The notes below the pieces were generated by a model. The model was not told where the DNA came from. It ran no database searches and was given only the letters and a program-made list of their open reading frames with translations. From assembly GCA_963830975.1 (NCBI GenBank), contig CAWHOI010000004.1:532924-596923 (forward strand): a stretch of 64,000 nucleotides of DNA, written 5' to 3'. This DNA comes from an uncultured Solirubrobacterales bacterium (GTDB lineage Bacteria; Actinomycetota; Thermoleophilia; Solirubrobacterales; Solirubrobacteraceae). Below, in pieces: positions 15,690-63,205 of this stretch; position 1 is the first letter of the stretch; every line of letters begins with the position of its first letter. Position numbers and translations under genes: made by a program.

Positions 15690-15690
<1 letters not shown>

Positions 15691-18410
15691 CAGAGCATCT
15701 CCTTGATCCGCGTGTGGAGCTCGCGCAGCGCGACAGCCGGTTCGCCGTTCAGCACGACGATCTCGGCCGGCAGGCCGTGGGAGCGCAGGGTCTGCAGGTC
15801 GCCGATCGCCTGCGCCGTCTCGAGCGTGCGAAACGTGTAGCCGGCTCCGGGTATCTCGACGTCGGGCCCGCTGTGGGCGATCAGCGAGAGGAAGCGCCCG
15901 ACCGGCGGACCGCCCTTGTGGAGCTGTCCGGTCGAGTGCAGGAAGCGCGGCCCGTAGCCGAACGTGGTGGCGAGGCGCGTGTGGGCGAGCAGGGTCGCGC
16001 GCAGCGCAGCGACCTCCTCGTCGAACTCGACCGAGGGCGCCACGTAGCCCATCAGGGCGATGTAGCCGTCTGCGGCGCCGCCGGTCAGCAGCGTGCGGAG
16101 CGCATCGTCGTCCGCCGGCTCGAGCTGCGGCAGCGCCCCGGCGCCGAGCACTCGCTTGGTGGCGTCCTTTGCCTCCTGGACGTTCGGCTGGTCGAACGGA
16201 TTGATCTCGAGCACCCAGCCTGCGACCGCCGTCGCGAACTCGGCGAGGAAGAACATCCGCCCCAGATCCTCGCTCCCGTTGACGCTCAGCGTGAGCGTCG
16301 GGTGCCCCGCCGCGCCCAGCGCCTCGACGCGGGAGTCGGTGTCCGCGTTAGCGCGCTCCTCGTCGCGCAGGTGCACGAAGACGCGGTCATCGCCGTAGCA
16401 CTCGGGTCCGAGCAGCGGCTCGTCGGCCACCGGCAGGATGCCCCGTCCCTGCTTGCCGGTGCTCTCCGCGACGAGCTGCTCGACCCAGAGTCCGAAGCTG
16501 GCGACCGGATCGCCGACGACGAACGTCAGCTTGTTGCGCCCGTGGCGGGCGAGCTCGCCGATAGCCAGTCCGAGCCACAGACCCGGGTTGGTCTGCGTGC
16601 TGTCGAAATGCGCGCACGCCTGCTCGGCGAGTTCGGCGCGCTCGAGCAGCGCATGCACCGGTGCGCCGATCAGCGCCGCCGGCACCAGGCCGAACAGCGA
16701 CAGCGCCGAGTAGCGCCCGCCGATGTTCGGGTCGTTCTCGAAGGCGGCGCGGAAGCCGTGCTCGCGCGCTAGATCGAGCAGCGAGCTGCCGGGGTCCGTG
16801 ATCGCCACGAAACGGTTACCGTCGGGCACCAGGGCGTGGAAGTGCTCGAACAGGGAGAGCGTCTCGATCGTCCCCCCCGACTTGGTCGAGACGACGAACA
16901 GGGTGCGCTCCAGCGAGATCGCCTCCTCCACATCGCGAATCGCCGCCGGATCCGTCGAATCGAGCACGTGCAGCGTCAGCGCCTCCTCGGTTGCGCCGAA
17001 CGTGCGCCACAGCACCTCGGGCGCGAGGCTCGAGCCGCCCATGCCGAGAAGCACCGCGTCCGTGAGGCCCTCCTCGGCACACCCGCGCGCGAACGCGACG
17101 AGCTCGTCGGCACGCTCGGCCATGGCGTCGGAGATCGTCAGCCAGCCCAGGCGGTCGCCGATCTCGGGCACCCCCGGACCGCCCCACAGCGACTCGTCCT
17201 TCGCCCACACGCGGCGGGCGACGCGCTGCTCGACCGCGGTCGAAACACGGCCGGCGATGGCGCGCGAGAGCTCGGGGGCGATCACCGCGGCGATCGCCGG
17301 CGGGCGCCCGGTGAGCACCATCTGGCGGGCGCTCTCGATGCCCGCGAGCAGCTTCTCCATCGGCGCGACGAACGCGGCGATCCCCTGCAGCAGCAGCGTC
17401 GTGGTCACGTCGTCCATGTCGATCCCGGCGGCGGCGAGCGCGTCGAGCGCGGGGGCCGGGTCGATCTGCGCGGTTCCCGGCACGATCTCGCCGCGCTCGG
17501 CGACGGCCAACAGGGTCTTCAGCGGCATCGTGTTGACGGTGTTCGGAGCGACCAGGCCGTCGACGTACATGGTGTCGGGGTAGGCCGGGTTCTTCACGCC
17601 GGTGGACGCCCACAGCGGGCGCTGCACGCGCGCGCCGGCGGCGCGCAGCGCGGCGAAACGCTCGCCGAGGAAGATCTGCTCGTAGCGGGCATAGGCGGCG
17701 CGCGCATTGGCCAGCGCGGCCGTGCCGGCGAGCTCGGAGCGTCCCAGCGCCGCGAGACGCTTGTCGACCTCGGTGTCCACGCGCGAGACGAAGAAGCTCG
17801 CGACCGAGTTGATGTCGACCGACAGGCCCGCGGCGAGGCGCCGCTCCAGCCCACGGATGTAGGCCTCGGCGATCTGCGCGTAGCGCTCGACGGAGAACAG
17901 CAGCGTCACGTTGACGTTGATGCCCTCGAAGATCGCCTGCTCGATCGCGGGAACCCCGGCCTCGGTGCCGGGGATCTTGATCATCAGGTTTGGGCGATCC
18001 ACGCGTGCCCAGTAGTCGCGCGCCTGCGCGATCGTGCCGTCGGTGTCGTCCGCGAGGGTCGGTGCGACCTCGAGCGAGATGAAGCCGTCGCCGTGCTCGT
18101 CGTAGACGCTGCGCAGCACGTCGGCGGCGTCCTGGACGTCGGCGACGGCGAGGCGCTCGTAGAGCGCCACGGCGTCGAGATCCTCGTGCGCCAGCTCCGC
18201 CAGCGCCTCCTCGTAGTCGTTGGAGCCGAGGATCGCCTGTTCGAAGATCGCCGGATTGGAGGTGACGCCGCGCAGCGAGCACTCGTCTCGCAGGCGGGCG
18301 AGCTCGCCGCTGACGATCAGGCCGCGGCGGATCTGGTCCAGCCACGGCGCGGTTCCGGCCGCAACCAACGCGGCAAGATTGGCGTTGGCGGTGTGGGGCG
18401 CGCTAGCCAT
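15690..18410 (-). CDS. bifunctional transaldolase / glucose-6-phosphate isomerase fusion
   Basis: 906 aa. The N-terminal ~370 aa carry TSNPAIF and NLMIKIPGT (Tal Schiff-base Lys context). The C-terminal part carries GMGGSSL and IGGRYSALS (PGI). An AGGAGG SD lies between it and the tkt stop. Confidence 0.9.
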
Positions 18411-18422
18411 GTGACCCTCCTT

Positions 18423-23290: not shown

Positions 23291-24133
23291 TCAGGCGCTC
23301 GGCGCGGTGGCGCCGCCGGCGATCGAGGCGCCTGCGGATCCACTGGCTCCCGTGGTGGCGGCCGGACTGCCGGCGGCGGGGAGCGGGGCGGTGGGCGCGA
23401 ACCAGTTCGTCGGCGCGATCGGCGGGCCGGGCAGAGCGAGCATCCCGACCGTCGAGGTCTGGGTCATGCCAAGCTCCAGCGCGGCTGCGTGAGTGAGGTC
23501 GATCGTCGCGCCGTTGCTCGCGTAGGGGCCACGGTCGATCACCGGCATCGTCAGCATCTCGCCGTTGTAGCTCACAGAGACGGGTGTGCCGCACGGGAGC
23601 GTGCGGTCGGCGAGCCCGACGATCTGCTTGGTCAGCAGCTCGCCGCAGGCGGTGTGGTTGCCGTACAGGCCCGGTCCGTACCAGGTCGCGATCACGCGCG
23701 CATAGACGGCCAGCGTCACCTCCGGTGTGGCGGTCACCGAGCTCGCGGAGGCGATGTCGGAGCCCAGGACGCGCAGCGTGAGCTCGCCTGTCCGGCTTGC
23801 CCGCCAGCTGATCGCGAAACTCCCGTCGGCTGCGGCGGTGGCGCTCGCAACGCTGACCCAGGCGTTCGCTCCGGCCCGGACCTGCAGCGAAACCGCGTGT
23901 CCGCCGTCCACGGCCGGCACGGAGCCCCTGATCACGGCTACCTGCCGCTGCAGGAGGGTCGACGGAGTGACAGTCAGCGCTCCGCCGACTGCGGTCGGCG
24001 ACGGCGTCGCGGTGGTCGGGCCGGCCGGGGCGGCGGTGCCGCCGTCGTTGCCGGCGCTGGCTACCGCGGGCAGAGCGAGAAGGCCGGCACAGAGGCCGGG
24101 AATTGCCAATCCGATTGCTGTACGCGCGCGCAC
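23291..24133 (-). CDS. secreted RlpA-like double-psi beta-barrel (DPBB) protein
   Basis: Signal peptide MRARTAIGLAIPGLCAGLLALPAVASA. ATWYGPGLYGNHTACGE..PCGT..VIDRGP is the RlpA/DPBB core. A Gly/Ala/Pro-rich tail follows. Confidence 0.75.
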   Translation of the reverse strand: MRARTAIGLAIPGLCAGLLALPAVASAGNDGGTAAPAGPTTATPSPTAVGGALTVTPSTLLQRQVAVIRGSVPAVDGGHAVSLQVRAGANAWVSVASATAAADGSFAISWRASRTGELTLRVLGSDIASASSVTATPEVTLAVYARVIATWYGPGLYGNHTACGELLTKQIVGLADRTLPCGTPVSVSYNGEMLTMPVIDRGPYASNGATIDLTHAAALELGMTQTSTVGMLALPGPPIAPTNWFAPTAPLPAAGSPAATTGASGSAGASIAGGATAPSA

Positions 24134-24159
24134 GATGTGCTCACTGCCCGGGTACCGTG

Positions 24160-24290
24160 GCCTACGGGGTGAGCTGTCGGGCTCGCGCGAGTCGCGCTAC
24201 GGCCGTGATCCGGCCGATTCGCCCCACGGAGATGGTCTCCGCATTGGTTCCCCCGCCCACCCTGCGCGGACGCAGCGTGGTTCGGCGTGG
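24160..24290 (-). promoter_or_regulatory. c-di-AMP riboswitch (ydaO/kimA class, Rfam RF00379-like) in the leader of the RlpA-like gene
   Basis: The minus strand reads ..GCCGAACC..GGGCGGGGGAACCAAUGC-GGAGAccaUCUCC-GUGGGGCGAAUC-GGCCGgaucaCGGCC-..GAGCCCGACAGCUCACCCCGUAGGCC. This matches, from memory, the conserved ydaO blocks CGGGGGAnCCA, GGGGyGAAUC and CCCGACAGCUnACCnCGUAnGC. It ends 26 nt before the GTG start. Confidence 0.65.
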
Positions 24291-27546: not shown

Positions 27547-28950
27547 ATGCAGTCGCGCCAGCTCCACGCCTCGTTGCACGCGTTCGCCGCAGCGGCGGGC
27601 GCGATCCTCGCCGGTGAAGTCGCGGGAGGCGACGAGATCGGCTTCGAGGTCGTGGAGGCGGGCGCGCGCGGCTCGCGGCCCGGGCTCTACTGCTACGAGC
27701 CGCTGACCGGCGAGTTCGTCGAGCGCCACTGGGCGAAGCTGCTGGCGCTGCCGGAGATGCGCGACGCCCAGCTCGCGCTGGCGGCGCTCGACGGCCTCGA
27801 GGACTACCTCGACGCCTACGCGCAGGAGCACCGGGTCGGCGCCCCGATCGAGCAGGACGTGCTGCGCTGCTTCACGCGCCGCGTCTTCACCGGGGCAGGG
27901 GAGAGCTTCGAGCTGCTGGCGGAGCGCTTCGAACCGGCCTACCGCGAGCTGAGGCAGGGGACGACCGACGAGCCCGGCGAGCTCGCTGTCCTGGCGCTCC
28001 TGCGGGGTCTCGGCTGCGAGTCGCAGGAGATCACCCTCGCCGAGGGCATGTTGCTGGCGCCCCTGGCGCGCCTCGACGTGCTGCCGCCCGACCCCTGCTG
28101 GCGCCGCCAGGAGGCGCCCGACGCCGACTCGCGCGCGCCGCGCGCCGGCGCCGAAGCGCGCACCGTGGTCGCGGTCGTCGTGACCGACGGGCCGGGCGCG
28201 ATCGCCGAGGCGGCCGAGCGGCTGCGTGACCTGCAGACCGCGCTGCGGCTCTACGCACCCGGGATCTCGCTCGCACCGCTCGCCTGGATCCGTGCCCCGC
28301 ACGCCGGCTGGCGGCCGTTGCCGATCGCCGGCGCCGGCCGCAGCGACGGACGCGTTCTCGTCAGCGCCGAGCAGGAGGACGAGCTGCGTGCGTTCGCCAA
28401 TCTGATCGCCCGCCGCCGACCGACCGACGGGGAGCTTGCCTGGGCGCTCGAGCGCTTCGAGCTGGCCGGCGAGCGCGGCGACGCGCTCGACGGCCTGACC
28501 GACAACCTGCTCGCGCTGCGGGCGCTGCTCGAGCCCGAGGGACCGCGCAGCGGGCGCCTCGCAGGCCGGATCGCGGCGCTCTGCGCCGAGCCTGCCGAAC
28601 GTCCTGCGGCGACCGAGCGCGTCGCGCACGCGATCTCGCTCGAGCATTCGCTGATCGCCGGGGTCAGCGTCGGTGAGCACGCGCTCGCGCTGGCGGAAGA
28701 GATCGAGAACCATCTGCGGGCGCTGCTGCGAGACTCGATCTGCGGGCATCTGAGCGGCGACCTCGTCGCGCTCGCGGACTCGCTGGTCGTCGAAGACGAC
28801 GCGCCCACGGCGCGACCGGGTGAGCGTCGCCGCGAGGCGCAGTCCAGCGGACCGCACGAGCACGCCGAGCAGGAGGATTGGTTCGACTTCGCCGAGGCGG
28901 ACTACTGCGCCGCCGAGGGCCCGGTGTCGCTGGGCGACCGCGCGAGGTAG
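27547..28950 (+). CDS. hypothetical protein (467 aa, no domain recognised)
   Basis: Consistent G/C third-position bias and an ordinary amino-acid composition. The overlapping minus-strand ORF 27391..28863 is Arg-rich noise. There is no obvious SD. Confidence 0.6.
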   Translation: MQSRQLHASLHAFAAAAGAILAGEVAGGDEIGFEVVEAGARGSRPGLYCYEPLTGEFVERHWAKLLALPEMRDAQLALAALDGLEDYLDAYAQEHRVGAPIEQDVLRCFTRRVFTGAGESFELLAERFEPAYRELRQGTTDEPGELAVLALLRGLGCESQEITLAEGMLLAPLARLDVLPPDPCWRRQEAPDADSRAPRAGAEARTVVAVVVTDGPGAIAEAAERLRDLQTALRLYAPGISLAPLAWIRAPHAGWRPLPIAGAGRSDGRVLVSAEQEDELRAFANLIARRRPTDGELAWALERFELAGERGDALDGLTDNLLALRALLEPEGPRSGRLAGRIAALCAEPAERPAATERVAHAISLEHSLIAGVSVGEHALALAEEIENHLRALLRDSICGHLSGDLVALADSLVVEDDAPTARPGERRREAQSSGPHEHAEQEDWFDFAEADYCAAEGPVSLGDRAR

Positions 28951-29996
28951 CGCCCCACCTGCGCCAGTCCGGCGAGGTCCTCGATCTCACCCGCAAGCTC
29001 GGGGATCAGCACCGGCTCGAGCCCTCCGAACGCCTCGCGCAGCCTTTCGAGCGCCGCCGCGTCAGCCGCGGCCAGCGCTTCCAGCTCACGCCAGCGCTCG
29101 GCCACCAGGCCGGCCAGCCGCGCGCCGAGCAGCGCTTCCAGCTCGGCCGGCTCGGGCGGTGGACTCTCGACCGTGTGGATGCGGTTGATCACGAGCGCCT
29201 CGAGCGAGTGATCGGCGCGGCGCAGCTCGGCGGCGAACGCGATCGCCTCCTCGAGCGCCTCGCGCTTCGGCGAGCTGACCAGGACGAAGGCCGTGTCCGG
29301 ATCGCGCAGCAGCGCCTGCACGGCCGCGGCCCGCGCGGCGAGCGCGTCGACCATGCCGGCGATCGCCGAGAAGAACGCGGTGATCTCGTGCAGCACGCCG
29401 GCACCGGTCAGGCGTCCGAGGACGCCGAGCAGCGGCGCGCTTGCACGACCCGCGGCGCGCGTCGCGAAGCTGCCCTGCGCGAGCAGGATCCGCAGGGCCC
29501 GGCCGTCGAAGAAGCGCGTCAGCCGCGAGGGCGCGTCGAGGAAGTCGAGTGCGTTGCGCGACGGTGGCGTGTCGAGCACGATCGCATCGAACTCACCGCT
29601 CCGATTCAGCTCGTACAGCTTTGCGACGGCACTGAACTCCTGCGATCCGGCGACCGCCCCCGACAGCTCGCGGTAGATCCGGTTCGAGAGTGCGCGGTCG
29701 CGAGCGCGCTCGTTCGGCGCCAGGCTCGCGATCAACTCATCGAGCGTGCGCTTGGGGTCCAGGCGCATCGCCCACAGCTCGCCTGGCCCGGGAACACGCC
29801 GTGCCTCGCCGCTCAGCTCGTCGAAGCCGAGCGCCTGCGCCAGGCGCGGCGCGGGATCGATCGTGACCACGGCGACGCGCTCTCCGCGGGCCGCGCGGGA
29901 GCAGGCGATCGCCGCCGCGACCGTCGTCTTGCCGACGCCGCCCGCGCCGACGCAGATGCACAGGCGTCCGCCGAGCGGATCGGCTTGCGCGTTCAC
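28902..29996 (-). CDS. ArsA/Get3-like P-loop ATPase (second of a pair)
   Basis: VNAQADPLGGRLCICVGAGGVGKTTVAAA..IVLDTPPSRNALDFL. The GTG start overlaps the stop of the upstream paralog (GTGA). Confidence 0.8.
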   Translation of the reverse strand: MNAQADPLGGRLCICVGAGGVGKTTVAAAIACSRAARGERVAVVTIDPAPRLAQALGFDELSGEARRVPGPGELWAMRLDPKRTLDELIASLAPNERARDRALSNRIYRELSGAVAGSQEFSAVAKLYELNRSGEFDAIVLDTPPSRNALDFLDAPSRLTRFFDGRALRILLAQGSFATRAAGRASAPLLGVLGRLTGAGVLHEITAFFSAIAGMVDALAARAAAVQALLRDPDTAFVLVSSPKREALEEAIAFAAELRRADHSLEALVINRIHTVESPPPEPAELEALLGARLAGLVAERWRELEALAAADAAALERLREAFGGLEPVLIPELAGEIEDLAGLAQVGRYLARSPSDTGPSAAQ

Positions 29997-30946
29997 GCCG
30001 CCACCGCCAGGTGATCCGCGAGAAGCTCGAGCTCGGGCACGGCGATCTGCGCCGCGGCGATCAGCGGCAGCTCGAGCGGCGCATCGATGCGCGCAAGCTG
30101 ATCGCGCTGGGCGTGCGCCCGTGCCTCCGACGCAAGCGCGGCCGCGAGGGCGTGACGGGTCGCCGCGGAGAGCTGCGGCTGGGCCTGGGCCTCGCGCAGC
30201 GCGACGAGGTCGCTCGCCGAGAAGCGCTCGGTGGTCACGCCGTTGACGAGCTCGGCGTCGAGCACTCCCCCCAGCGCGGCGCGCAGCGCGAGCAGCTCGT
30301 CGACGGCGGCGCGCTCGGGCGTCGCCACGGCGACCATCGCGGTCAGGCTGCGGTCGCGAAGCATCGTCGCGATCCGGCGCCCCTGGCGGGCGATCGGTCC
30401 AACCGCAGCGGCGCTCGCGAACGTGCGCGGCGCCTCCAGCAGCGCGAGGCCATGTCCGGTCGCCGGCGCGTCCACGACGACGACGTCGTAGGGATCTGCG
30501 TGGCGCGTGCGGCGCCGCGGCTGCGCCAGCTCCCAGATCTTTCCGATCGTCAGCATCTCGCGAAGTCCCGGCGTCGCCGCCGCGACGATCCCGAACGTGG
30601 TGCTCGAGCCGAGCACGTCGGCGAACATCCGCAGCGGAAGCTGGTCGTGCAGGTACTCCTCGAGCGCCTGGCGCGGGTCGACGTCTAGCGTCCACAGCCC
30701 CGGCGCCAGCTCGTTCTCGCTGCCGGCCTCGCAGCGGCGCCCGAACAGTCGCGGGACATCGCCGCGCCCGCTCACTTCGACGACCATCGTCCGTCGGCCC
30801 TGGCGCGCCGCGAGCAACCCCAGGGCCGCCGCGAGCGTGGAGCGCCCGACCCCGCCCTTGCCGAGGAGGAACACCAGACGCCGATCCAGCAGCCCGCGGC
30901 CGGCATGCTCGGTTGTGTTCGCGGATCGCCGGGTCGTGGTCCACAA
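29993..30946 (-). CDS. ArsA/Get3-like P-loop ATPase (first of a pair)
   Basis: LVFLLGKGGVGRSTLAAAL..VVVDAPATGHGLALL. The TTG at 30946 is my best guess for the start; the track ORF is over-extended to 32092. Confidence 0.72.
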   Translation of the reverse strand: MWTTTRRSANTTEHAGRGLLDRRLVFLLGKGGVGRSTLAAALGLLAARQGRRTMVVEVSGRGDVPRLFGRRCEAGSENELAPGLWTLDVDPRQALEEYLHDQLPLRMFADVLGSSTTFGIVAAATPGLREMLTIGKIWELAQPRRRTRHADPYDVVVVDAPATGHGLALLEAPRTFASAAAVGPIARQGRRIATMLRDRSLTAMVAVATPERAAVDELLALRAALGGVLDAELVNGVTTERFSASDLVALREAQAQPQLSAATRHALAAALASEARAHAQRDQLARIDAPLELPLIAAAQIAVPELELLADHLAVAA

Positions 30947-31036
30947 CCTAGTCCACCGACGTGCCGCATGAAGGATTCCTCTCAGCGCTTGCGAATAACG
31001 CCGCGTGTGGGTCCGCCCTCGACGCTGGAGCATCCC

Positions 31037-31801
31037 GTGAGCCAGAAGGCCAAAGTGATCGCGTTCGCCAACCAGAAGGGCGGCGTCGCGAAGACGACGA
31101 CGACGTTGAATCTCGCCGCGGCCTTCGCCGAGGAGGGCCACCGCGTGCTCTGCGTGGACATGGACCCGCAGGGCAACCTGACGATGTCGCAGGGAATCGA
31201 CCCGGATTCGCTCGAGCAGTCGATGTACGACGTGCTCGTGCATCACATCTCGATCCGCGAGGTGATCCGCAAGCGCGAGATCGACGTCGCGTGCGCCTCG
31301 ATCGACCTCGCCGGGGCGGAGATCGCGATGGCGCCGATGATCGGCCGCGAGCGCGCGCTGCAGCGGGCATTCGACCCGATCCGCGAGGACTACGACTTCA
31401 TCTGCATCGACACACCGCCGAGCCTCGGCCTGCTGACGATCAACGCGCTGACCGCGGCCGACAAGGTGATCGTCCCCGTGCAGTGCGAGTATCTGTCGAT
31501 GCGCGGTCTCATCCAGCTGCAGAACACGCTCTCCATGATCCGCGAGAACCTCAACCCCAACGTCGACATCGAGGGAATCCTGCCGACGCTGGTGGACTCG
31601 CGCACGATCCACGCGAAGGAGGCGATCGAGATCCTCGAGGAGAACTTCGGGGACCGCGTCTTCGCGTCGCGCATCCGCAAGACCGTGCGCTTCGCCGAGG
31701 CGCCGGTGAAGGGGATGTCTGTGCTCAAGTACGACCCCAAGGGCGTCGCCGCGCAGTCCTACCGAGATCTCGCCCAGGAGGTGCTCCATGGGCGCCGGTA
31801 A
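31037..31801 (+). CDS. ParA/Soj-family (MinD superfamily) ATPase, no parB partner in the window
   Basis: [29 protein letters not shown] (deviant Walker A) ..[22 protein letters not shown] start at 31037. Confidence 0.9.
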
Positions 31802-33245
31802 GCGGGCCAGCATGCGCGAGGGGCCCCTCGCCGCGCTCTTCCGCAAGACCGAGCAGGACAGCCGCGCGGCGCACCCGGCGCCGGAGGAGAGCGCCGAAGC
31901 GCCGAACGCTCCCGGCGAGCCGATCGATGCCGCCCCCGAGCCGTCGCACGAGCACGATGCGCCGCCTCCGCGCCACCCGCGCGAGAGCGGCGTGCCGCAC
32001 CCCGCCCTGAGCGTCGAGGAGGCCGCGACGTCCGTTCCGACTCCCCAGGAGCGCCTGCGGGCCGCGTTCAGCTCCGAGCTGCCCGAGGACATCCTCGAGC
32101 GCGAGCCGGCGCCCCACCATCCGATCGACGTCTACGCCCGCGCCGACTACAGCGAGCCGCAGCCCGGCTCGTCGCTGGGACAGCCGCGCCTGCGGGTCGT
32201 CGGCGTCGGCGGCGGGGGCGTCAACGCCGTAAACCGGATGGTCGAGGCCGGCGTGGCCGGCGTCGAGTTCCTTGCCGTCAACACCGACCTGCAGTCCCTG
32301 CAGCAGTGCACCGCCGATGTCACCGTGCACATCGGCGCCCAGGTGACCCGTGGCCTCGGCTCGGGAGCGAACGCCGAGCTTGGCAGGCTCGCGGCGATGG
32401 AGGAGTACGACAAGATCAAGTCGCTGCTCAAGGGCTCGGACATGATCTTCATCACGGCGGGCGAGGGTGGCGGCACCGGCACCGGCGCGGCCCCCGTGAT
32501 CGCGCGGATCGCGCGCGAGGTCGGCGCCCTGACGGTCGGCATCGTGACCAAGCCATTCGGCTTCGAGGGAACAAAGCGCGCGCAGCAGGCGGACGCCGGC
32601 ATCGAGGCGCTCGGAGCCGAGGTCGACACGCTGATCGTGGTGCCCAACAACCGGCTGCTGTCCGTGCTCGACAAGCAGACCTCGATGGTCGAGGCCTTCC
32701 GCGTCGCCGACGACGTGCTCCGCCAAGGCGTGCAGGGCGTGTCGGACCTCGTCACGCTGCCCGGACTGATCAACCTCGATTTCGCCGACGTGCGGACGGT
32801 GATGTCGGGCGCCGGCACGGCGCTGCTCGGCATCGGCATGGGGCACGGCGAGCACCGCGCAATCGAGGCTGCGACAGCCGCCGTCGCGTCGCCGCTGCTC
32901 GAGACCTCGATGGACGGTGCGCGTTCGATCCTGCTCTCGATCACCGGCGGCAGCGACCTCTCGCTGTGGGAGGTCAACGAGGCGGCCAAGGCAGTGAGCG
33001 AGGCGGCCCACCCTGACGCCAACATCATCTTCGGAGCGATGGTCGACGAGAACCTCGCCGACCAGGTTTGGGTGACCGTTGTCGCCACCGGTTACGCCGA
33101 CCGCGCGATTCGCCGGCCGCGCCGCCTCGACGAGCCGATCGGCGAGCCCCGCATCAAGCGCACCGCCGAGCCGCGTCCGGTCGCCGGACGCGCTCCGATC
33201 TCGGCCGCCTCACTCGACGTGCCCGAGTTCGTTCCCCGCGGTTAG
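31788..33245 (+). CDS. ftsZ: cell division GTPase FtsZ with a ~125-aa N-terminal extension
   Basis: Core motifs [39 protein letters not shown] and [11 protein letters not shown], plus the C-terminal peptide [10 protein letters not shown]. An AGGAGG at 31776-31781 lies 6 nt before the ATG, which sits 14 nt inside the parA-like gene. The alternative ATG at 31812 keeps the extension. Confidence 0.93.
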
Positions 33246-33251
33246 GCGCGC

Positions 33252-33683
33252 ATGGGCCGTCGGACGGCTCGAAGGCTCCTCGCGTCGCTGTGCGCGACCG
33301 TCGCTCTCGTCACGGTGAGCGCCTGCGGGGGGCCGGCCGCTGACCTGTTCGCCGTTTTCCGCAGCGGCCGGGTCGCCGGGGCCGACGTGACGGTGATCCC
33401 GAGCGGCGACGGCACGGTGCGCTGCAACGGCCGTCGCCACGAGTTGCCCGATCCGCTGGTGATCACCGCCGAGAACCTCGCCGACGATCTGACCACGCCT
33501 GGGAGCAAGGGCGAGCACCTGCCCTCGGGCCCGCACCCCGTCTACACCTACGTGGTCTCGACGCCGTCGGGCACCTTCAGCTACAGCGACGAGTCCCCCC
33601 ACCAGGGCTCGACGCTCTACGCCCTGCAGTCCTGGGTGGCGACCGTCGTGCGCACCGTGTGCCACCTGAAGGCCGGCGCCTGA
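33252..33683 (+). CDS. putative lipoprotein
   Basis: MGRRTARRLLASLCATVALVTVSAC has a lipobox-like VSAC. The gene starts 6 nt after the ftsZ stop. Confidence 0.6.
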   Translation: MGRRTARRLLASLCATVALVTVSACGGPAADLFAVFRSGRVAGADVTVIPSGDGTVRCNGRRHELPDPLVITAENLADDLTTPGSKGEHLPSGPHPVYTYVVSTPSGTFSYSDESPHQGSTLYALQSWVATVVRTVCHLKAGA

Positions 33684-33704
33684 CCCGCGCGCGCAGGCGG
33701 GTCA
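33681..33704. terminator. hairpin spanning two convergent stop codons
   Basis: TGACCCGC-gcgcgcag-GCGGGTCA, an 8-bp stem. It includes the TGA of the lipoprotein gene and the TGA (complement) of the LON-domain gene. There is no U-tract. Confidence 0.35.
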
Positions 33705-34376
33705 GCCGAAGCGCACCTTGCCGTTCGACCGCGCCCGGGCCTGCGCCCGGTCGACGAATTCGAGGCGCTTGAGCGCTGCGCGCATCAGCCGCGCCAGCAG
33801 TCGCAGACGCGCGTTCTCCGAGCGCAGCTCGAGCAGACCCTGCTTGGCCTCCAGTCCGAAGTCGACCGTGGCAGCCATCTCGTAGGCGTCCATCGCGGCA
33901 AGCCGGTCGTCGTCCGGTTCGCTGTCGGTCGCCTCGCGCACGAGCGCCGCGTAGGCGTCGCGCGCCGACCCGACGGCGATCTCGTCCCGCTCCTCGTCGC
34001 GGTCGGTCAGGAACTCGACCGTGCCCGCGGGGTAGGCGAGGTCGTCCTGGCGCTCGATCAGGCGGAACGGTCGGGTGCCGCGGGTCAGGATGTTGATGCG
34101 ACCGTCGTCGAGGCGCTCCAGCACGCGCTCGATCGCGACCGCGCAGCCGACCGGCTTCAGCTCGTCATCGGCGAGCCAGACGATGCCCAGCTCACGCTCG
34201 CGCTCGAGGCACTCCTCGACCATCGTCCGGTAGCGAGCCTCGAATATGTGCAGCGGCACGTACTCGCTCGGCAGCGCGACGAGCGCGAGCGGAAAGAGGG
34301 GGAAATCGCGCTCGATCAGCTCGCTCATGCGCGTGGTCCGCGGGGCCGCGAACTTTGGCGGACTGTCATCGGCCAA
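33702..34376 (-). CDS. LON N-terminal substrate-binding domain protein
   Basis: FPLFPLALVALPSEYVPLHIFEARYRTMV..GCAVAI..DGRINILTRGTRPFRL. The start could instead be the ATG at 34328. Confidence 0.75.
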   Translation of the reverse strand: MADDSPPKFAAPRTTRMSELIERDFPLFPLALVALPSEYVPLHIFEARYRTMVEECLERERELGIVWLADDELKPVGCAVAIERVLERLDDGRINILTRGTRPFRLIERQDDLAYPAGTVEFLTDRDEERDEIAVGSARDAYAALVREATDSEPDDDRLAAMDAYEMAATVDFGLEAKQGLLELRSENARLRLLARLMRAALKRLEFVDRAQARARSNGKVRFG

Positions 34377-34483
34377 TTATGGAGCGCGCACGTCGCGGCA
34401 CCGCCGCTGGACGCCCAGACGCCCCGGCGCGCGGGCGGCGCGAGCGCGGCGCGAGTGGCTCGGCGCGACGCATCGGGCTGTCG

Positions 34484-35125
34484 TCAGGCGTCGTAGCGGA
34501 GCGCCTGCGGTGAGGAGCGCATCGCGATCACGCGGGCCGGCACGCCGCCGACGACGGAGTTCGCCGGCACGTCTCGCGTCACGACCGCGCCGGTCGCGAC
34601 CACGGCGTTGTCGCCGATCGTCACGCCCGGCAGGATGCTCGCACCGTGTCCCACCCACACGTTGTTGCCGACGCGGACCTCCCGCCGCTCGATGCCCTGC
34701 AGCCGGATCGGGCGCTCGACGTCGGCGATGGAATGGTCGAAGTCGATGATCATCGCGCGGTCGGCGATCATGCAGTCGCGTCCGATCGAGATGCGCTGGT
34801 AGCAGGTGACGGTGCACTCCTGGCCGATCACGCTCTTGGCGCCGAGGCTGAAGACGCCGTCGTGGATGCGCAGCTTCGTGCCGTTGCCGACCCACGACCA
34901 CCGCCCGAGCTCGATCACCGCCGGCCGGTCCACCTCGAGCGACGCGCCCGTGCAGATGAAGGCGACGCCGTCGAGCCGCAGACGGTCACGCAGGCGCAGC
35001 TTGTACCAGGCAAGGCGTGCGAATCGCCGCGCGTAGAGCGGGTTCGCCATCCCATGCGAGAGCACGAAGCGCACGAGCGTGAAGGCGCCGCCGCGCAGCG
35101 GGCGGATCGGTTCCGGCGGTGCCAT
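34484..35125 (-). CDS. hexapeptide-repeat acyltransferase (left-handed beta-helix)
   Basis: VGNNVWVGHGASILPGVTIGDNAVVATGAVVTRDVPANSVVGGVPARVI. Confidence 0.8.
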   Translation of the reverse strand: MAPPEPIRPLRGGAFTLVRFVLSHGMANPLYARRFARLAWYKLRLRDRLRLDGVAFICTGASLEVDRPAVIELGRWSWVGNGTKLRIHDGVFSLGAKSVIGQECTVTCYQRISIGRDCMIADRAMIIDFDHSIADVERPIRLQGIERREVRVGNNVWVGHGASILPGVTIGDNAVVATGAVVTRDVPANSVVGGVPARVIAMRSSPQALRYDA

Positions 35126-61303: not shown

Positions 61304-63205
61304 ATGACGATGTCTACAGCCGCCTCTCGACACCGTCTCCTCCTGCCGACCGTCCTGCTGGCGCTCGCAGTTGCGGCGTGGCTCGCCCCGGCGGCGGCGC
61401 GAGCGTCCGCGGCTCTTCCCCCGGTTGTCACGATCTCCCCGCTGCCGGGCACGCAGGACGCCTCGCCGACCACGCAGATCAGCTTCCTCGGCGTCGCGGC
61501 CGCCGATGTCACCGAGATCGTCGTTCACGGCTCGCTGAGCGGCACGCACAGCGGCAAGCTCGAGGCCTACTCGACGGGGACCGGTGCGAGCTACGTGCTC
61601 TACCGCGCTTTCGATCCCGGCGAGCAGGTCACGGTGAGCGCCGTGGAGACCGTGTCCGGCGCGCACCGCACGATCGGCACGAGCTTCACGATCGGGGTGC
61701 TGTACAGCGTTCCGCGACCCACCGGGCCCACCGGCAAGGCTGGCACGACCGGCAAGGCTGGCACGACCGGGACCACCGGAACCACCGGCACGACGGGCGC
61801 CACCGGCGCCACCGGCGCGACGGGGCCAACCCGAGTGCAGAGCTTCACCTCCCAGCCGACGCTGCACCCGCCGGCGGTCAGCGTCACCGGACCGGCGCCC
61901 GATCCCGCGCTCGGCGACGTCTTCCTCTCACCCGCCGAGGGCTCCCAGCAGCCGGGGGTGATGATCGTCAACCCGGAGGGGCAGCTGGTCTACTTCGACC
62001 CGGCGCCGGTGGGGGAGCAGTCCGAGGACGTGCGCGTGCAGCAGTATCTCGGCCAGACCGTGCTGACCTACTGGCAGGGCTGGATCGCGCTGGGTCACGG
62101 CATCGACGGCGTTGGCGTGATCGACAACACCGCCTACCGGCAGATCGCGCAGGTACGGGCGGGAAACGGCCTCTCGATGGACCTGCACGACTTCGAGCTG
62201 GAGCCCGGGGGAGTCGCCTGGATCACCGTGTTCGAGCCGGTCTATGAGAACCTCAGCGCCTACGGCGGCTCCTCCAAGGGTGTGATCGAGGACTGCGTCG
62301 TGCAGGAGATCGACGTCCGCACCGGGCTCGTGATGTTCGAGTGGCACGCGATCGGGCACGTGCCGCTGAGCAACTCCTACAGCGGCATCTCCCGCAGCTC
62401 CAGCTCGATCTGGGACTGGTTCCACATCAACTCGATCGACGTCGAGCCTGATCACAACATCCTGATCAGCTCCCGCAACACCTGGGCCGTCTACGAGATC
62501 GGGCACACCTACGGCGAGGTGCTCTGGACGCTCGGCGGGCGCCACAGCACATTCGCCCTGGGGCCGGACGTGCGCTTCGCCTGGCAGCACGACGCGACGC
62601 TGACCTCGTTCGGCTCGGTCGAGATCTTCGACAACGAGGCCACGCCGAAGATCGAGGGGCGCTCGCGTGGGATCGACGTGGCGCTTGATTTCAGCACCCA
62701 CACGGCCACGCTGGCGCACGAGTACGTCGATCCGTCGGAGAACGTCCTCTCGCCCAGCCAGGGCGACATCCAGCAGCTCGCCAACCGCGACGAGTTCGTG
62801 GGCTGGGGCCAGATCGGTCTGGCGTCCGAGTTCGCGCCGTCCGGCGCGCTCGACTTCCAGCTGAGCCTGCCGCCGCTGGTCGAGTCCTATCGCGATTTCC
62901 GTTTCCCCTGGAGCGCTCGCCCGGCCACGCCGCCGAGCGTCGTCGCAACGGCGGGGGGCGCCGCGGGAACGACGGCCCTCGCGGTCAGCTGGAACGGAGC
63001 GACCGGCGTGCTCGCCTGGCAGGTGCTCGCCGGCGCGAGCGCGACCGCGCTCGCGCCGGTCGGGGCTCCGGTCGCCAGCAGCGGATTCGAAACGCTGATC
63101 ACCGCCGCCACGAGCGCTCGCTACATCGAGGTGCGGGCGCTCGGCGCCGGCAACGCGGTCCTCGGCGCCTCCGCCGCCGTGCCCGTGACCGCGGCGCCCG
63201 CGTAG
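61304..63205 (+). CDS. secreted arylsulfotransferase-like (ASST / Arylsulfotran_2) beta-propeller protein with a collagen-like linker
   Basis: Signal peptide. DLHDFELEPGG..VQEIDVRTGLVMFEWH..WDWFHINSIDVEPDHNILISSRNTWAVYEI..VLWTLGG. Start is the ATG at 61304 or 61310; the track TTG at 61283 is less likely. Confidence 0.68.
   Translation: MTMSTAASRHRLLLPTVLLALAVAAWLAPAAARASAALPPVVTISPLPGTQDASPTTQISFLGVAAADVTEIVVHGSLSGTHSGKLEAYSTGTGASYVLYRAFDPGEQVTVSAVETVSGAHRTIGTSFTIGVLYSVPRPTGPTGKAGTTGKAGTTGTTGTTGTTGATGATGATGPTRVQSFTSQPTLHPPAVSVTGPAPDPALGDVFLSPAEGSQQPGVMIVNPEGQLVYFDPAPVGEQSEDVRVQQYLGQTVLTYWQGWIALGHGIDGVGVIDNTAYRQIAQVRAGNGLSMDLHDFELEPGGVAWITVFEPVYENLSAYGGSSKGVIEDCVVQEIDVRTGLVMFEWHAIGHVPLSNSYSGISRSSSSIWDWFHINSIDVEPDHNILISSRNTWAVYEIGHTYGEVLWTLGGRHSTFALGPDVRFAWQHDATLTSFGSVEIFDNEATPKIEGRSRGIDVALDFSTHTATLAHEYVDPSENVLSPSQGDIQQLANRDEFVGWGQIGLASEFAPSGALDFQLSLPPLVESYRDFRFPWSARPATPPSVVATAGGAAGTTALAVSWNGATGVLAWQVLAGASATALAPVGAPVASSGFETLITAATSARYIEVRALGAGNAVLGASAAVPVTAAPA
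61724..61831 (+). repeat. in-frame 9-bp repeat tract encoding 12 uninterrupted Gly-X-Y (mostly G-x-T) triplets
   Basis: GPT GKA GTT GKA GTT GTT GTT GTT GAT GAT GAT GPT. At the DNA level these are near-identical units (ggcaaggct ggcacgacc, twice; ggcgccacc, twice). Confidence 0.9.

Follow-up and report, generated by a model that had tools for sequence, protein, structure and literature searches.

A ParA-like ATPase gene overlapping ftsZ in Solirubrobacterales and a candidate ATPase-binding peptide at the N-terminus of FtsZ

MipZ of Caulobacter crescentus is reportedly a ParA-family ATPase that acts directly on FtsZ and places the Z ring with DNA as its matrix. In the MinCDE system, a deviant Walker-A ATPase likewise governs Z-ring placement, and its activator MinE uses an N-terminal basic helix. 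In the PomXYZ system of Myxococcus xanthus, the division site is positioned by the nucleoid-bound ParA-type ATPase PomZ; its activating partner PomX starts with a conserved, basic peptide of 22 residues, continues as an unstructured region rich in Ala and Pro, and polymerises through its remaining part (PMC7993993). The Soj-type ATPases of the ParA-ParB systems (M. xanthus ParA-ParB, T. thermophilus Soj/Spo0J) have a conserved DNA-binding Arg and a hydrophobic pocket for the extreme N-terminus of ParB/Spo0J, a basic peptide with the core G-L-x-A-L-hydrophobic that becomes helical when bound (PMC12462528). More generally, the gene of a ParA/MinD ATPase typically has that of its partner beside it. 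Such partners make contact through a conserved peptide at the very start of the chain, which is positively charged; an unstructured stretch comes next, and what remains of the protein belongs to the cargo (PMC10241942, PMC7993993). Here, we analyzed a 64,000-nucleotide stretch of DNA from an uncultured bacterium of the Solirubrobacterales, an order of soil actinobacteria (Thermoleophilia; contig CAWHOI010000004.1, positions 532,924 to 596,923; hereafter, the window), in which the gene for a ParA-like ATPase overlaps the start of ftsZ and the encoded FtsZ begins with a peptide of the partner type.

In one account (PMC7118173), Actinomycetota are described as being without the canonical Z-ring regulators and membrane anchors. 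The placement of the Z ring in this phylum is an open question, and its orphan ParA-like ATPases are without a defined partner. Two of these, ParP (Rv3213c/MSMEG_1927) and PldP (Cg1610/Rv1708), resemble the window ATPase in having no adjacent ParB. ParP, whose function is unknown, is degraded as a substrate by the PafE proteasome. PldP, which has been termed 'enigmatic', localises to septa and affects cell length, and it is the orphan ParA of Actinomycetota that has been implicated in division. Unlike the gene studied here, neither parP nor pldP lies beside ftsZ; mycobacterial parP is found between gpm2 and a PP2C-like gene. We found no description of the present arrangement in full-text searches of the literature on FtsZ or ParA of Solirubrobacterales and Thermoleophilia or on orphan ParA-FtsZ neighbourhoods. 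The arrangement suggests an undescribed, adaptor-free means of division-ring placement.

The parA-like/ftsZ pair and its conservation

The parA-like gene (31037-31801, forward strand) encodes a ParA/Soj-type deviant Walker-A ATPase of 254 amino acids (aa), of the orphan type and recognised by Pfam AAA_31. It starts with a GTG at 31037, which has a GGAG 6 nt upstream, and ends with a TAA at 31799-31801. The ftsZ gene (31788-33245, forward strand; matched by TIGR00065, Tubulin and FtsZ_C) extends from an ATG at 31788 to a TAG at 33243-33245, and its 485-aa product has an N-terminal extension ahead of the GTPase core and ends in a C-terminal tail. The end of the first gene and the beginning of the second share 14 nt (31788-31801, forward strand), which is a geometry of translational coupling, and a Shine-Dalgarno sequence for ftsZ, AGGAGG (31776-31781, forward strand), lies within the parA-like coding sequence, 6 nt before the ATG. 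The next gene on this strand (33252-33683; 143 codons, from an ATG at 33252 to a stop at 33681-33683) encodes a lipoprotein; a signal peptide and a VSAC lipobox can be read from its sequence, and the Pfam scan assigned it no family. Frame statistics based on GC at third codon positions (GC3) back the reading frames of all three genes. A preliminary description of this DNA had reported the overlap, the AGGAGG and the lipoprotein start; we re-read every coordinate and found it correct.

For comparison, a scan of one genome per species supplied the best 80 of 221 relatives, all of them Solirubrobacterales and mostly metagenome-assembled genomes, with Solirubrobacter soli, Paraconexibacter and three complete chromosomes included. 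Each locus comprised about 21 kb, and FtsZ identity among the 80 loci drops to 61%. By tblastn, a parA-like gene was found directly upstream of ftsZ in 79 of the 80 loci, the exception being truncated by a contig end, and beside ftsZ in all 54 loci that extend at least 7 kb to both sides of it, which served as the synteny baseline. Presence of neighbours among these 54 loci was 54 for the ATPase, 49 for one ArsA-like gene, 42 for the lipoprotein, 39 for a Lon-N gene and 14-36 for others. The stop of the parA-like gene and the start of ftsZ overlapped by 4-17 nt in 77 of 77 loci resolved by script, with exactly 14 nt in 54 of them, and the overlap was also 14 nt in loci L029, L035 and L044, where it was computed by hand from the coordinates. 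A GGAG core preceded the ftsZ start at the same place in 78 of the 80 loci. The ATPase gene and ftsZ are the sole invariant gene pair of the neighbourhood, they stand at a fixed offset, and their arrangement is not due to chance. As judged from these sequences, they make up one conserved, translationally coupled operon in Solirubrobacterales.

Adjacency and overlap, which had been described from the one DNA, hold across the order (79/80 and 54/54), and of the ParA-like/FtsZ(/lipoprotein) module that had been suggested on that basis, the first two members are supported by the conserved adjacency and overlap and by the N-terminal peptide of FtsZ (see below). The third is not, as the lipoprotein gene is not tightly linked: it lies directly 3' of ftsZ only in the ten closest relatives, and in other relatives it is found 1.6-6 kb off, behind a gamma-glutamyltranspeptidase gene, or is absent within 10 kb. 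It is a neighbour without conserved module membership. In most loci from L011 onward, ftsZ and the lipoprotein gene are separated by the gamma-glutamyltranspeptidase gene, which is split into two open reading frames (ORFs) in L013 (11566-13042) and is absent from the window and its ten closest relatives. We had considered scpA/scpB as the genes between ftsZ and the lipoprotein gene in distant relatives and rejected them, since the gene there is that for gamma-glutamyltranspeptidase; no scpA or scpB was found in the window.

Many public assemblies, very long contigs among them, have a frameshifted ftsZ or an artificial ParA-FtsZ fusion ORF at this locus. The frameshifted entries P0050, P0072, P0080, P0174, P0261, P0288, P0318 and P0327 look like the result of homopolymer or indel errors made when long reads of high-GC DNA were assembled, and automated annotation would be misled by them. 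Small proteins on long contigs and ParA-FtsZ fusions (P0050, P0072, P0174, P0261, P0288 and P0327) were accordingly set aside as products of frameshifted assemblies. A look-up of the exact window FtsZ sequence among public assemblies returned nothing on record.

The ATPase and the N-terminal extension of FtsZ

The ATPase matched AAA_31 of Pfam over its full length (2.4e-62, 210 bits) and also CbiA. It has the features of the ParA/MinD deviant Walker A family, namely a deviant Walker A, KGGVAKT, in which K14 and K19 are invariant in the 76 orthologues used for counting residue conservation; VDMDPQGN at residues 40-47, which is the family's second motif (D-x-D-P-Q-x-N); and a Walker B region at residues 122-131 that aligns with those of M. 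xanthus ParA and T. thermophilus Soj. R218 aligns with the DNA-binding R238 of M. xanthus ParA and is invariant in 76 of 76 orthologues, and R189 is invariant as well; surface arginines (M. xanthus R238, the B. subtilis Soj R189 type) serve non-specific DNA binding in the nucleoid-binding ParA/Soj subgroup, to which the window ATPase is thereby predicted to belong. The ATPase is 83-98% identical across 78 loci, and the mean identity to the window protein is higher for the ATPase than for the FtsZ core (89.4% vs 83.9%; higher in 68 of 70 loci). When the ATPase was used in a word-index search, at least 120 clusters matched at 87% identity or more, and the matches listed are close orthologues. 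Four orthologues (P0253, P0255, P0272 and P0291) have a repetitive insertion of 50-80 residues, rich in His, Ala, Pro and Gly, just before the conserved C-terminal ...EVLAHG.

Among solved structures, the ATPase is 47% identical to M. smegmatis 4PFS/5IHP, 42% to M. xanthus ParA (8RAY) and 43% to T. thermophilus Soj; the last two are 53% identical to each other. We mapped the ParB-binding site of M. xanthus ParA, which was defined experimentally (PMC12462528), onto the window protein. The hydrophobic pocket is kept (M. xanthus residues first: V116 as I96, L150 as L130, L152 as L132, L155 as I135, L187 as M167 and L192 as L172), and Y81, E82 and D110 are kept as Y64, D65 and D90. These pocket residues, Y64, D65, D90 and R218 are invariant or nearly so in the 76 orthologues. 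In M. xanthus ParA, Y81, E82, D110 and E117 form the pocket for the central Arg/Lys of ParB, and Y81 and E117 are invariant in 3800 homologues (PMC12462528). Unlike in ParA-ParB, the position of this invariant Glu is occupied here by Ala (A97), as it is in 75 of the 76 orthologues, and an Ala in Walker A takes the place of the Gly of canonical ParA.

The ATPase departs from a canonical chromosomal ParABS protein, both in this missing Glu and in having no adjacent parB or parS. No parS was found at up to 3 mismatches in the window or at up to 2 mismatches in a total of 1.53 Mb of related loci, and neither a ParB-type gene nor a GLG[RK]GL N-terminus was found in the window or the 80 loci. Pfam scans of about 70 ORFs, essentially the entire 64-kb window, detected no mur, ftsW, ftsQ, ftsA, sepF, divIVA, minCDE or parB. 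Both absences claimed in the preliminary description, that of dcw neighbours in the 64 kb and that of parB/parS, are borne out by these scans, the latter also in the related loci.

Unlike MinD, the ATPase has no amphipathic membrane-targeting helix at its C-terminus (...AQEVLHGRR) and keeps the DNA-binding Arg residues; it scored 53.7 against a cutoff of 212.9 with the minD NCBIfam models, and no minC or minE occurs in the window. The ParB-type pocket that it retains is largely missing from E. coli MinD (PMC12462528). The match to Pfam MipZ was partial (50.9 bits; residues 7-155 on profile positions 2-136 of 262), with AAA_31 far better. MipZ differs further in being recruited and regulated by ParB and in inhibiting the FtsZ core, and Caulobacter FtsZ is not known to carry a tag for it.

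The best solved match, 4PFS at 47%, is the protein that we take to be the M. smegmatis orthologue of ParP (Rv3213c), from the gene context known for Rv3213c: gpm2, entC, whiB1 and sigH lie to one side of the 4PFS gene and an rhlE helicase gene to the other. This ParP has the same KGGVAKT, and thus the same Walker A Ala, and the same missing Glu. MSMEG_3743, the Rv1708 orthologue, was excluded as the identity of 4PFS, as its Walker-A lysines are at 52 and 57, positions that imply an N-terminal extension missing from the window ATPase (K14 and K19). The matches listed in a homologue search with M. smegmatis ParP are close orthologues, and ParP orthologues are unusually well conserved, at 88% identity or more among the mycobacterial species listed. 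In M. smegmatis (L081, 10001-11523), a PP2C-like gene with weak Pfam support lies 14 nt downstream of parP; we rejected its product as a parallel to FtsZ because it has no basic N-terminal peptide. Altogether, the ATPase is, by its sequence features, probably a nucleoid-binding ParA of the orphan type and not a ParB-partnered Soj, a MinD or a full-length MipZ. Its earlier designation as an orphan looks right, given the lack of parB/parS nearby, the Walker-A Ala, the missing Glu and ParP as closest solved relative.

The window FtsZ scored 406.9 bits with TIGR00065 (cutoff 295.2), contains PF00091 and PF12327, and reached about 400 bits with the FtsZ structures of B. subtilis and M. tuberculosis. 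Its GTPase core, delimited by Pfam and structure alignment, comprises residues 132-445 (32181-33122, forward strand) with GGGTGTG and the T7 loop NLDFADV. Solved FtsZs (Bacillus, Mycobacterium, Staphylococcus, E. coli) align from about residue 11-14 to residues 132-135 here, and the window FtsZ therefore has about 120 extra N-terminal residues, which are absent from all solved FtsZs and which the preliminary description had not noted; M. tuberculosis FtsZ, for example, aligns from residue 14 (1RLU) and is without the extension. At the other end, the canonical C-terminal peptide LDVPEFVP (33213-33236, forward strand) is conserved across loci and matches the actinobacterial pattern for this peptide. 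A conserved EPxGEPR motif (residues 449-455, 33132-33152) stands upstream of it in the C-terminal linker.

The layout of the extension was derived from the 80 loci and 35 metagenomic fragments. Motif 1 (residues 5-22; 31800-31853, forward strand), which we propose as a ParA-binding or -activating tag, is nearly invariant in 79 loci and invariant in the 35 fragments, and 5 of its 18 residues are basic. At almost every position, 3-5 synonymous codon variants occur while the amino acid is constant; motif 1 is therefore translated and under strong purifying selection. It is followed by a predicted disordered linker rich in Pro, Ala and Glu (31854-32180, forward strand), variable in length and sequence with the exception of two conserved islands: motif 2, PPHPRE[ST]GxPHP[AS]L (residues 59-74, 31962-32009, forward strand), and motif 3 (residues 83-104, 32034-32099, forward strand), which is predicted to be helical with a per-residue confidence (pLDDT) of about 86. 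A short element, D-x-YAR, stands just ahead of the FtsZ core. AlphaFold2 modelling of the extension alone, with a 35-sequence alignment, gave mostly coil (predicted template modelling score, 0.22), with predicted helices at residues 13-26 (motif 1) and 86-95 (motif 3). An 'ERLREAF...' stretch near the C-terminus of the ArsA-like neighbour, which resembles motif 3, was dismissed as a coincidence, as it is not kept in orthologues.

A profile of the extension was run against 1.84 billion representatives, and the best 150 of the 927 matched clusters were all FtsZ N-termini or frameshifted fragments of them. We also searched for other carriers of motif 1 with a word-index search using the 131-aa extension, by profile, and with six-frame regular expressions on the window and the 80 loci, and all matches listed were FtsZ N-termini. 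The motif-1 peptide (30 residues) gave no match among PDB sequences, as expected for such a length. In Anabaena and other heterocyst-forming cyanobacteria, FtsZ also has a conserved extension at its N-terminus, specific to that lineage and required for normal function (PMC6175996). The Anabaena peptide differs from the present one in sequence, no linked ParA-type ATPase has been reported for it, and it is proposed to act in polymerisation.

In M. xanthus ParB, the key ParA-binding residues are L11, R13, L15, L18 and I19 (PMC12462528). Motif 1 resembles the corresponding ParB motif, L-x-R-x-L-x-x-L-I, and the T. thermophilus Spo0J sequence GLGRGLEALLPKT; we verified that the Spo0J N-terminus starts MSRKPSGLGRGLEALLPKTG. 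Motif 1 and the ParB peptide have in common a G-(P)-L-x-A-L-hydrophobic core with flanking basic residues, and motif 1 shares with Thermus Spo0J a subsequent x-K-T as well. Motif 1 differs from the ParB motif in an extra Pro and in the place of its Arg, which lies one residue off; this displacement would at least fit the altered pocket for Arg in the ATPase.

With a basic N-terminal peptide, a predicted disordered linker and a gene that overlaps that of the ATPase, FtsZ has the architecture described for ParA/MinD partners. The nearest functional analogues are PomXYZ, MipZ and MinCDE, and PomX has a similar layout. The PomX peptide has no sequence relationship to motif 1, and M. xanthus belongs to a different phylum; there is no PomX or PomY here, peptide and linker are on FtsZ, and the tagged polymer would be the Z-ring protein itself. 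In comparison with ParA-ParB, the cargo would be FtsZ and not DNA.

FtsZ as a candidate partner of the ATPase

Since the partner architecture fits and motif 1 resembles the ParB motif, we hypothesized that FtsZ serves the nucleoid-bound ParA-like ATPase as partner and cargo at once, with binding, stimulation and localisation all inferred; this is the reading that we prefer, at about even odds. ATP-bound dimers of the ATPase would sit on the nucleoid, and the extreme N-terminus of FtsZ, on its flexible linker of about 110 aa, would fold into a short amphipathic helix. This helix would dock where the two ATPase subunits meet, in their hydrophobic pocket, like the N-terminal peptides of ParB and PomX, and the docked peptide would stimulate ATP hydrolysis and release. 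FtsZ polymers, with many peptides each, would then be a multivalent cargo on a gradient of the ATPase that they generate themselves, and no adaptor of the MinC, ParB or PomX/Y kind would be needed to place Z-ring assembly, or to confine it, with respect to the nucleoid. Because the tag looks like an activator peptide, we lean slightly towards positive positioning at mid-nucleoid, of the PomXYZ or plasmid kind, over inhibition above DNA of the MipZ or Noc kind. The fuller proposal, in which an invariant N-terminal 'luggage tag' on a flexible tether would let the polymers of the Z ring themselves ride or sense the ATPase gradient, so that division-site positioning is adaptor-free, is somewhat less likely than not.

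Several observations support FtsZ as partner and cargo. The gene linkage is uniquely invariant, and the overlap is conserved together with its internal Shine-Dalgarno sequence; the ATPase keeps the peptide pocket and the DNA-binding Arg and is better conserved than the FtsZ core. Furthermore, the listed matches to the extension profile all come from FtsZ N-termini, and no parB or parS is nearby.

Other observations weigh against this proposal. The pairing of ATPase and FtsZ peptide shows no covariation, because both sides are invariant. Motif 1 is not a ParB motif, owing to its Pro insertion and the Arg that is one position off, and the Glu that helps to bind the ParB arginine in M. xanthus is missing (E117 to A97), so that docking may differ or fail. 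A short amphipathic basic helix could instead bind the membrane or some other protein of the divisome. The partner model accounts for neither motif 2 nor motif 3 of the extension, and synteny is fairly conserved in the order generally, as the ArsA-like neighbour in 49 of 54 loci illustrates. In addition, the comparison was made among loci, so a ParB partner or a second ftsZ elsewhere in the genomes is possible, and for ParP (Rv3213c), the nearest relative with any characterisation, no connection with division is known.

The first alternative is that the two proteins are co-expressed without contact. The ATPase would then serve the chromosome, with a ParB encoded elsewhere, or another cargo, the operon would only couple segregation and division in dosage or timing, and motif 1 would bind the membrane, SepF, another divisome protein or a regulator, or act as a degron. 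We consider this unlikely, although it draws on several precedents: the orphan actinobacterial ParA-like protein Rv1708 has been reported to interact with ParB and ScpA, the effect of PldP on division is only moderate, and the N-terminal peptide of Anabaena FtsZ has a role in polymerisation unrelated to ParA (PMC6175996). The departures of motif 1 from the ParB consensus and the lack of an E117 equivalent in the ATPase fit it as well. However, co-expression leaves unexplained why the overlapping ATPase-ftsZ pair is the only invariant one and why a partner-type architecture stands at the extreme N-terminus of FtsZ in the same lineage, and no parB or parS lies nearby. The invariant peptide, the conservation of the ATPase and the invariant pair argue only partly against it.

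A second alternative, which we hold to be quite improbable, is that the locus encodes a specialised second FtsZ with its own ATPase and that a housekeeping ftsZ lies in a dcw cluster elsewhere. The scan listed 80 of 221 relatives, the best ones, and any paralogues that lack the extension would not have been among them, which leaves some room for such a gene. The equivalog score of 406.9 bits, the full set of GTPase motifs and the canonical C-terminal peptide argue against it, the core is about 78-97% conserved, and one copy per genome was found in the 80 listed loci, the three complete chromosomes included. Finally, mere inherited synteny, in which an ancestral rearrangement put ftsZ behind the parA-like gene and the overlap froze it there with no functional link, draws on the fairly syntenic neighbours (ArsA-like in 49/54) and on the difficulty of separating overlapping genes, but is very improbable, as it leaves unexplained the purifying selection on motif 1 and an ATPase more conserved than FtsZ, and as the flanks were reshuffled (gamma-glutamyltranspeptidase inserted, lipoprotein moved) and the parA-like/ftsZ pair never.

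If FtsZ is indeed the partner of the ATPase, this would be, to our knowledge, the first known case of FtsZ itself carrying a tag for a ParA/MinD ATPase; the described systems that we know of all use a separate adaptor (MinC/MinE, ParB or PomX/Y). The locus is a natural genetic hint, in that a whole order keeps an orphan-type ParA coupled to ftsZ together with a partner-type peptide on FtsZ, and it could indicate the type of cargo handled by the orphan ParA-like ATPases of Actinomycetota (ParP/PldP type). The question is directly testable, as no more than the peptide of 18 residues, the ATPase of 254 aa and cultured hosts such as Conexibacter and Solirubrobacter would be needed, and the motif-1 peptide could serve as a minimal positioning tag in synthetic biology.

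Other features of the window

Upstream of the parA-like gene, a bipartite promoter-like motif, GAAGGA(A/T)TC-N10-nTGCGAATA(A/C), was found at 30970-30998 (forward strand), 38 nt before the start codon. About 70 of 75 related loci have the motif, also written AGGAAT-N11-TGCGAATA, at 30-45 nt before the parA-like start, within intergenic sequence that otherwise cannot be aligned among them. The motif differs from the sigma-70 consensus and may be an alternative-sigma promoter or a regulator site for the parA-ftsZ operon. Simple scans of 30600-34500 revealed neither a sigma-70 promoter nor a terminator.

Further upstream are genes for a sigma-70 factor, a T2SSE ATPase, an unknown protein and two ArsA/Get3-like P-loop ATPases. 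The latter stand in tandem at 28902-29930 and 29993-30890, both on the reverse strand and divergent from the parA-like gene; NCBIfam cross-hits make them a BagA/BagB-like pair, at least one of which is syntenic in 49 of the 54 loci. Downstream neighbours encode a Lon-N-domain protein, a hexapeptide transferase and MeaB. At the right edge of the window, a Glycos_transf_4 gene begins at 62689 after prfA-prmC-glyA, and because of this gene order it is read as probably WecA-type rather than mraY.

About 7 kb upstream of the operon, a gene on the reverse strand (23291-24196) encodes a DPBB_1 protein (RlpA-like lytic transglycosylase); it is the sole gene related to cell-wall remodelling found in the window. 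A 910-aa ORF, also on the reverse strand (15690-18422), combines transaldolase and phosphoglucose-isomerase domains in an apparent tal-pgi fusion and lies within a pentose-phosphate cluster (tkt, zwf, opcA, pgl and glpX).

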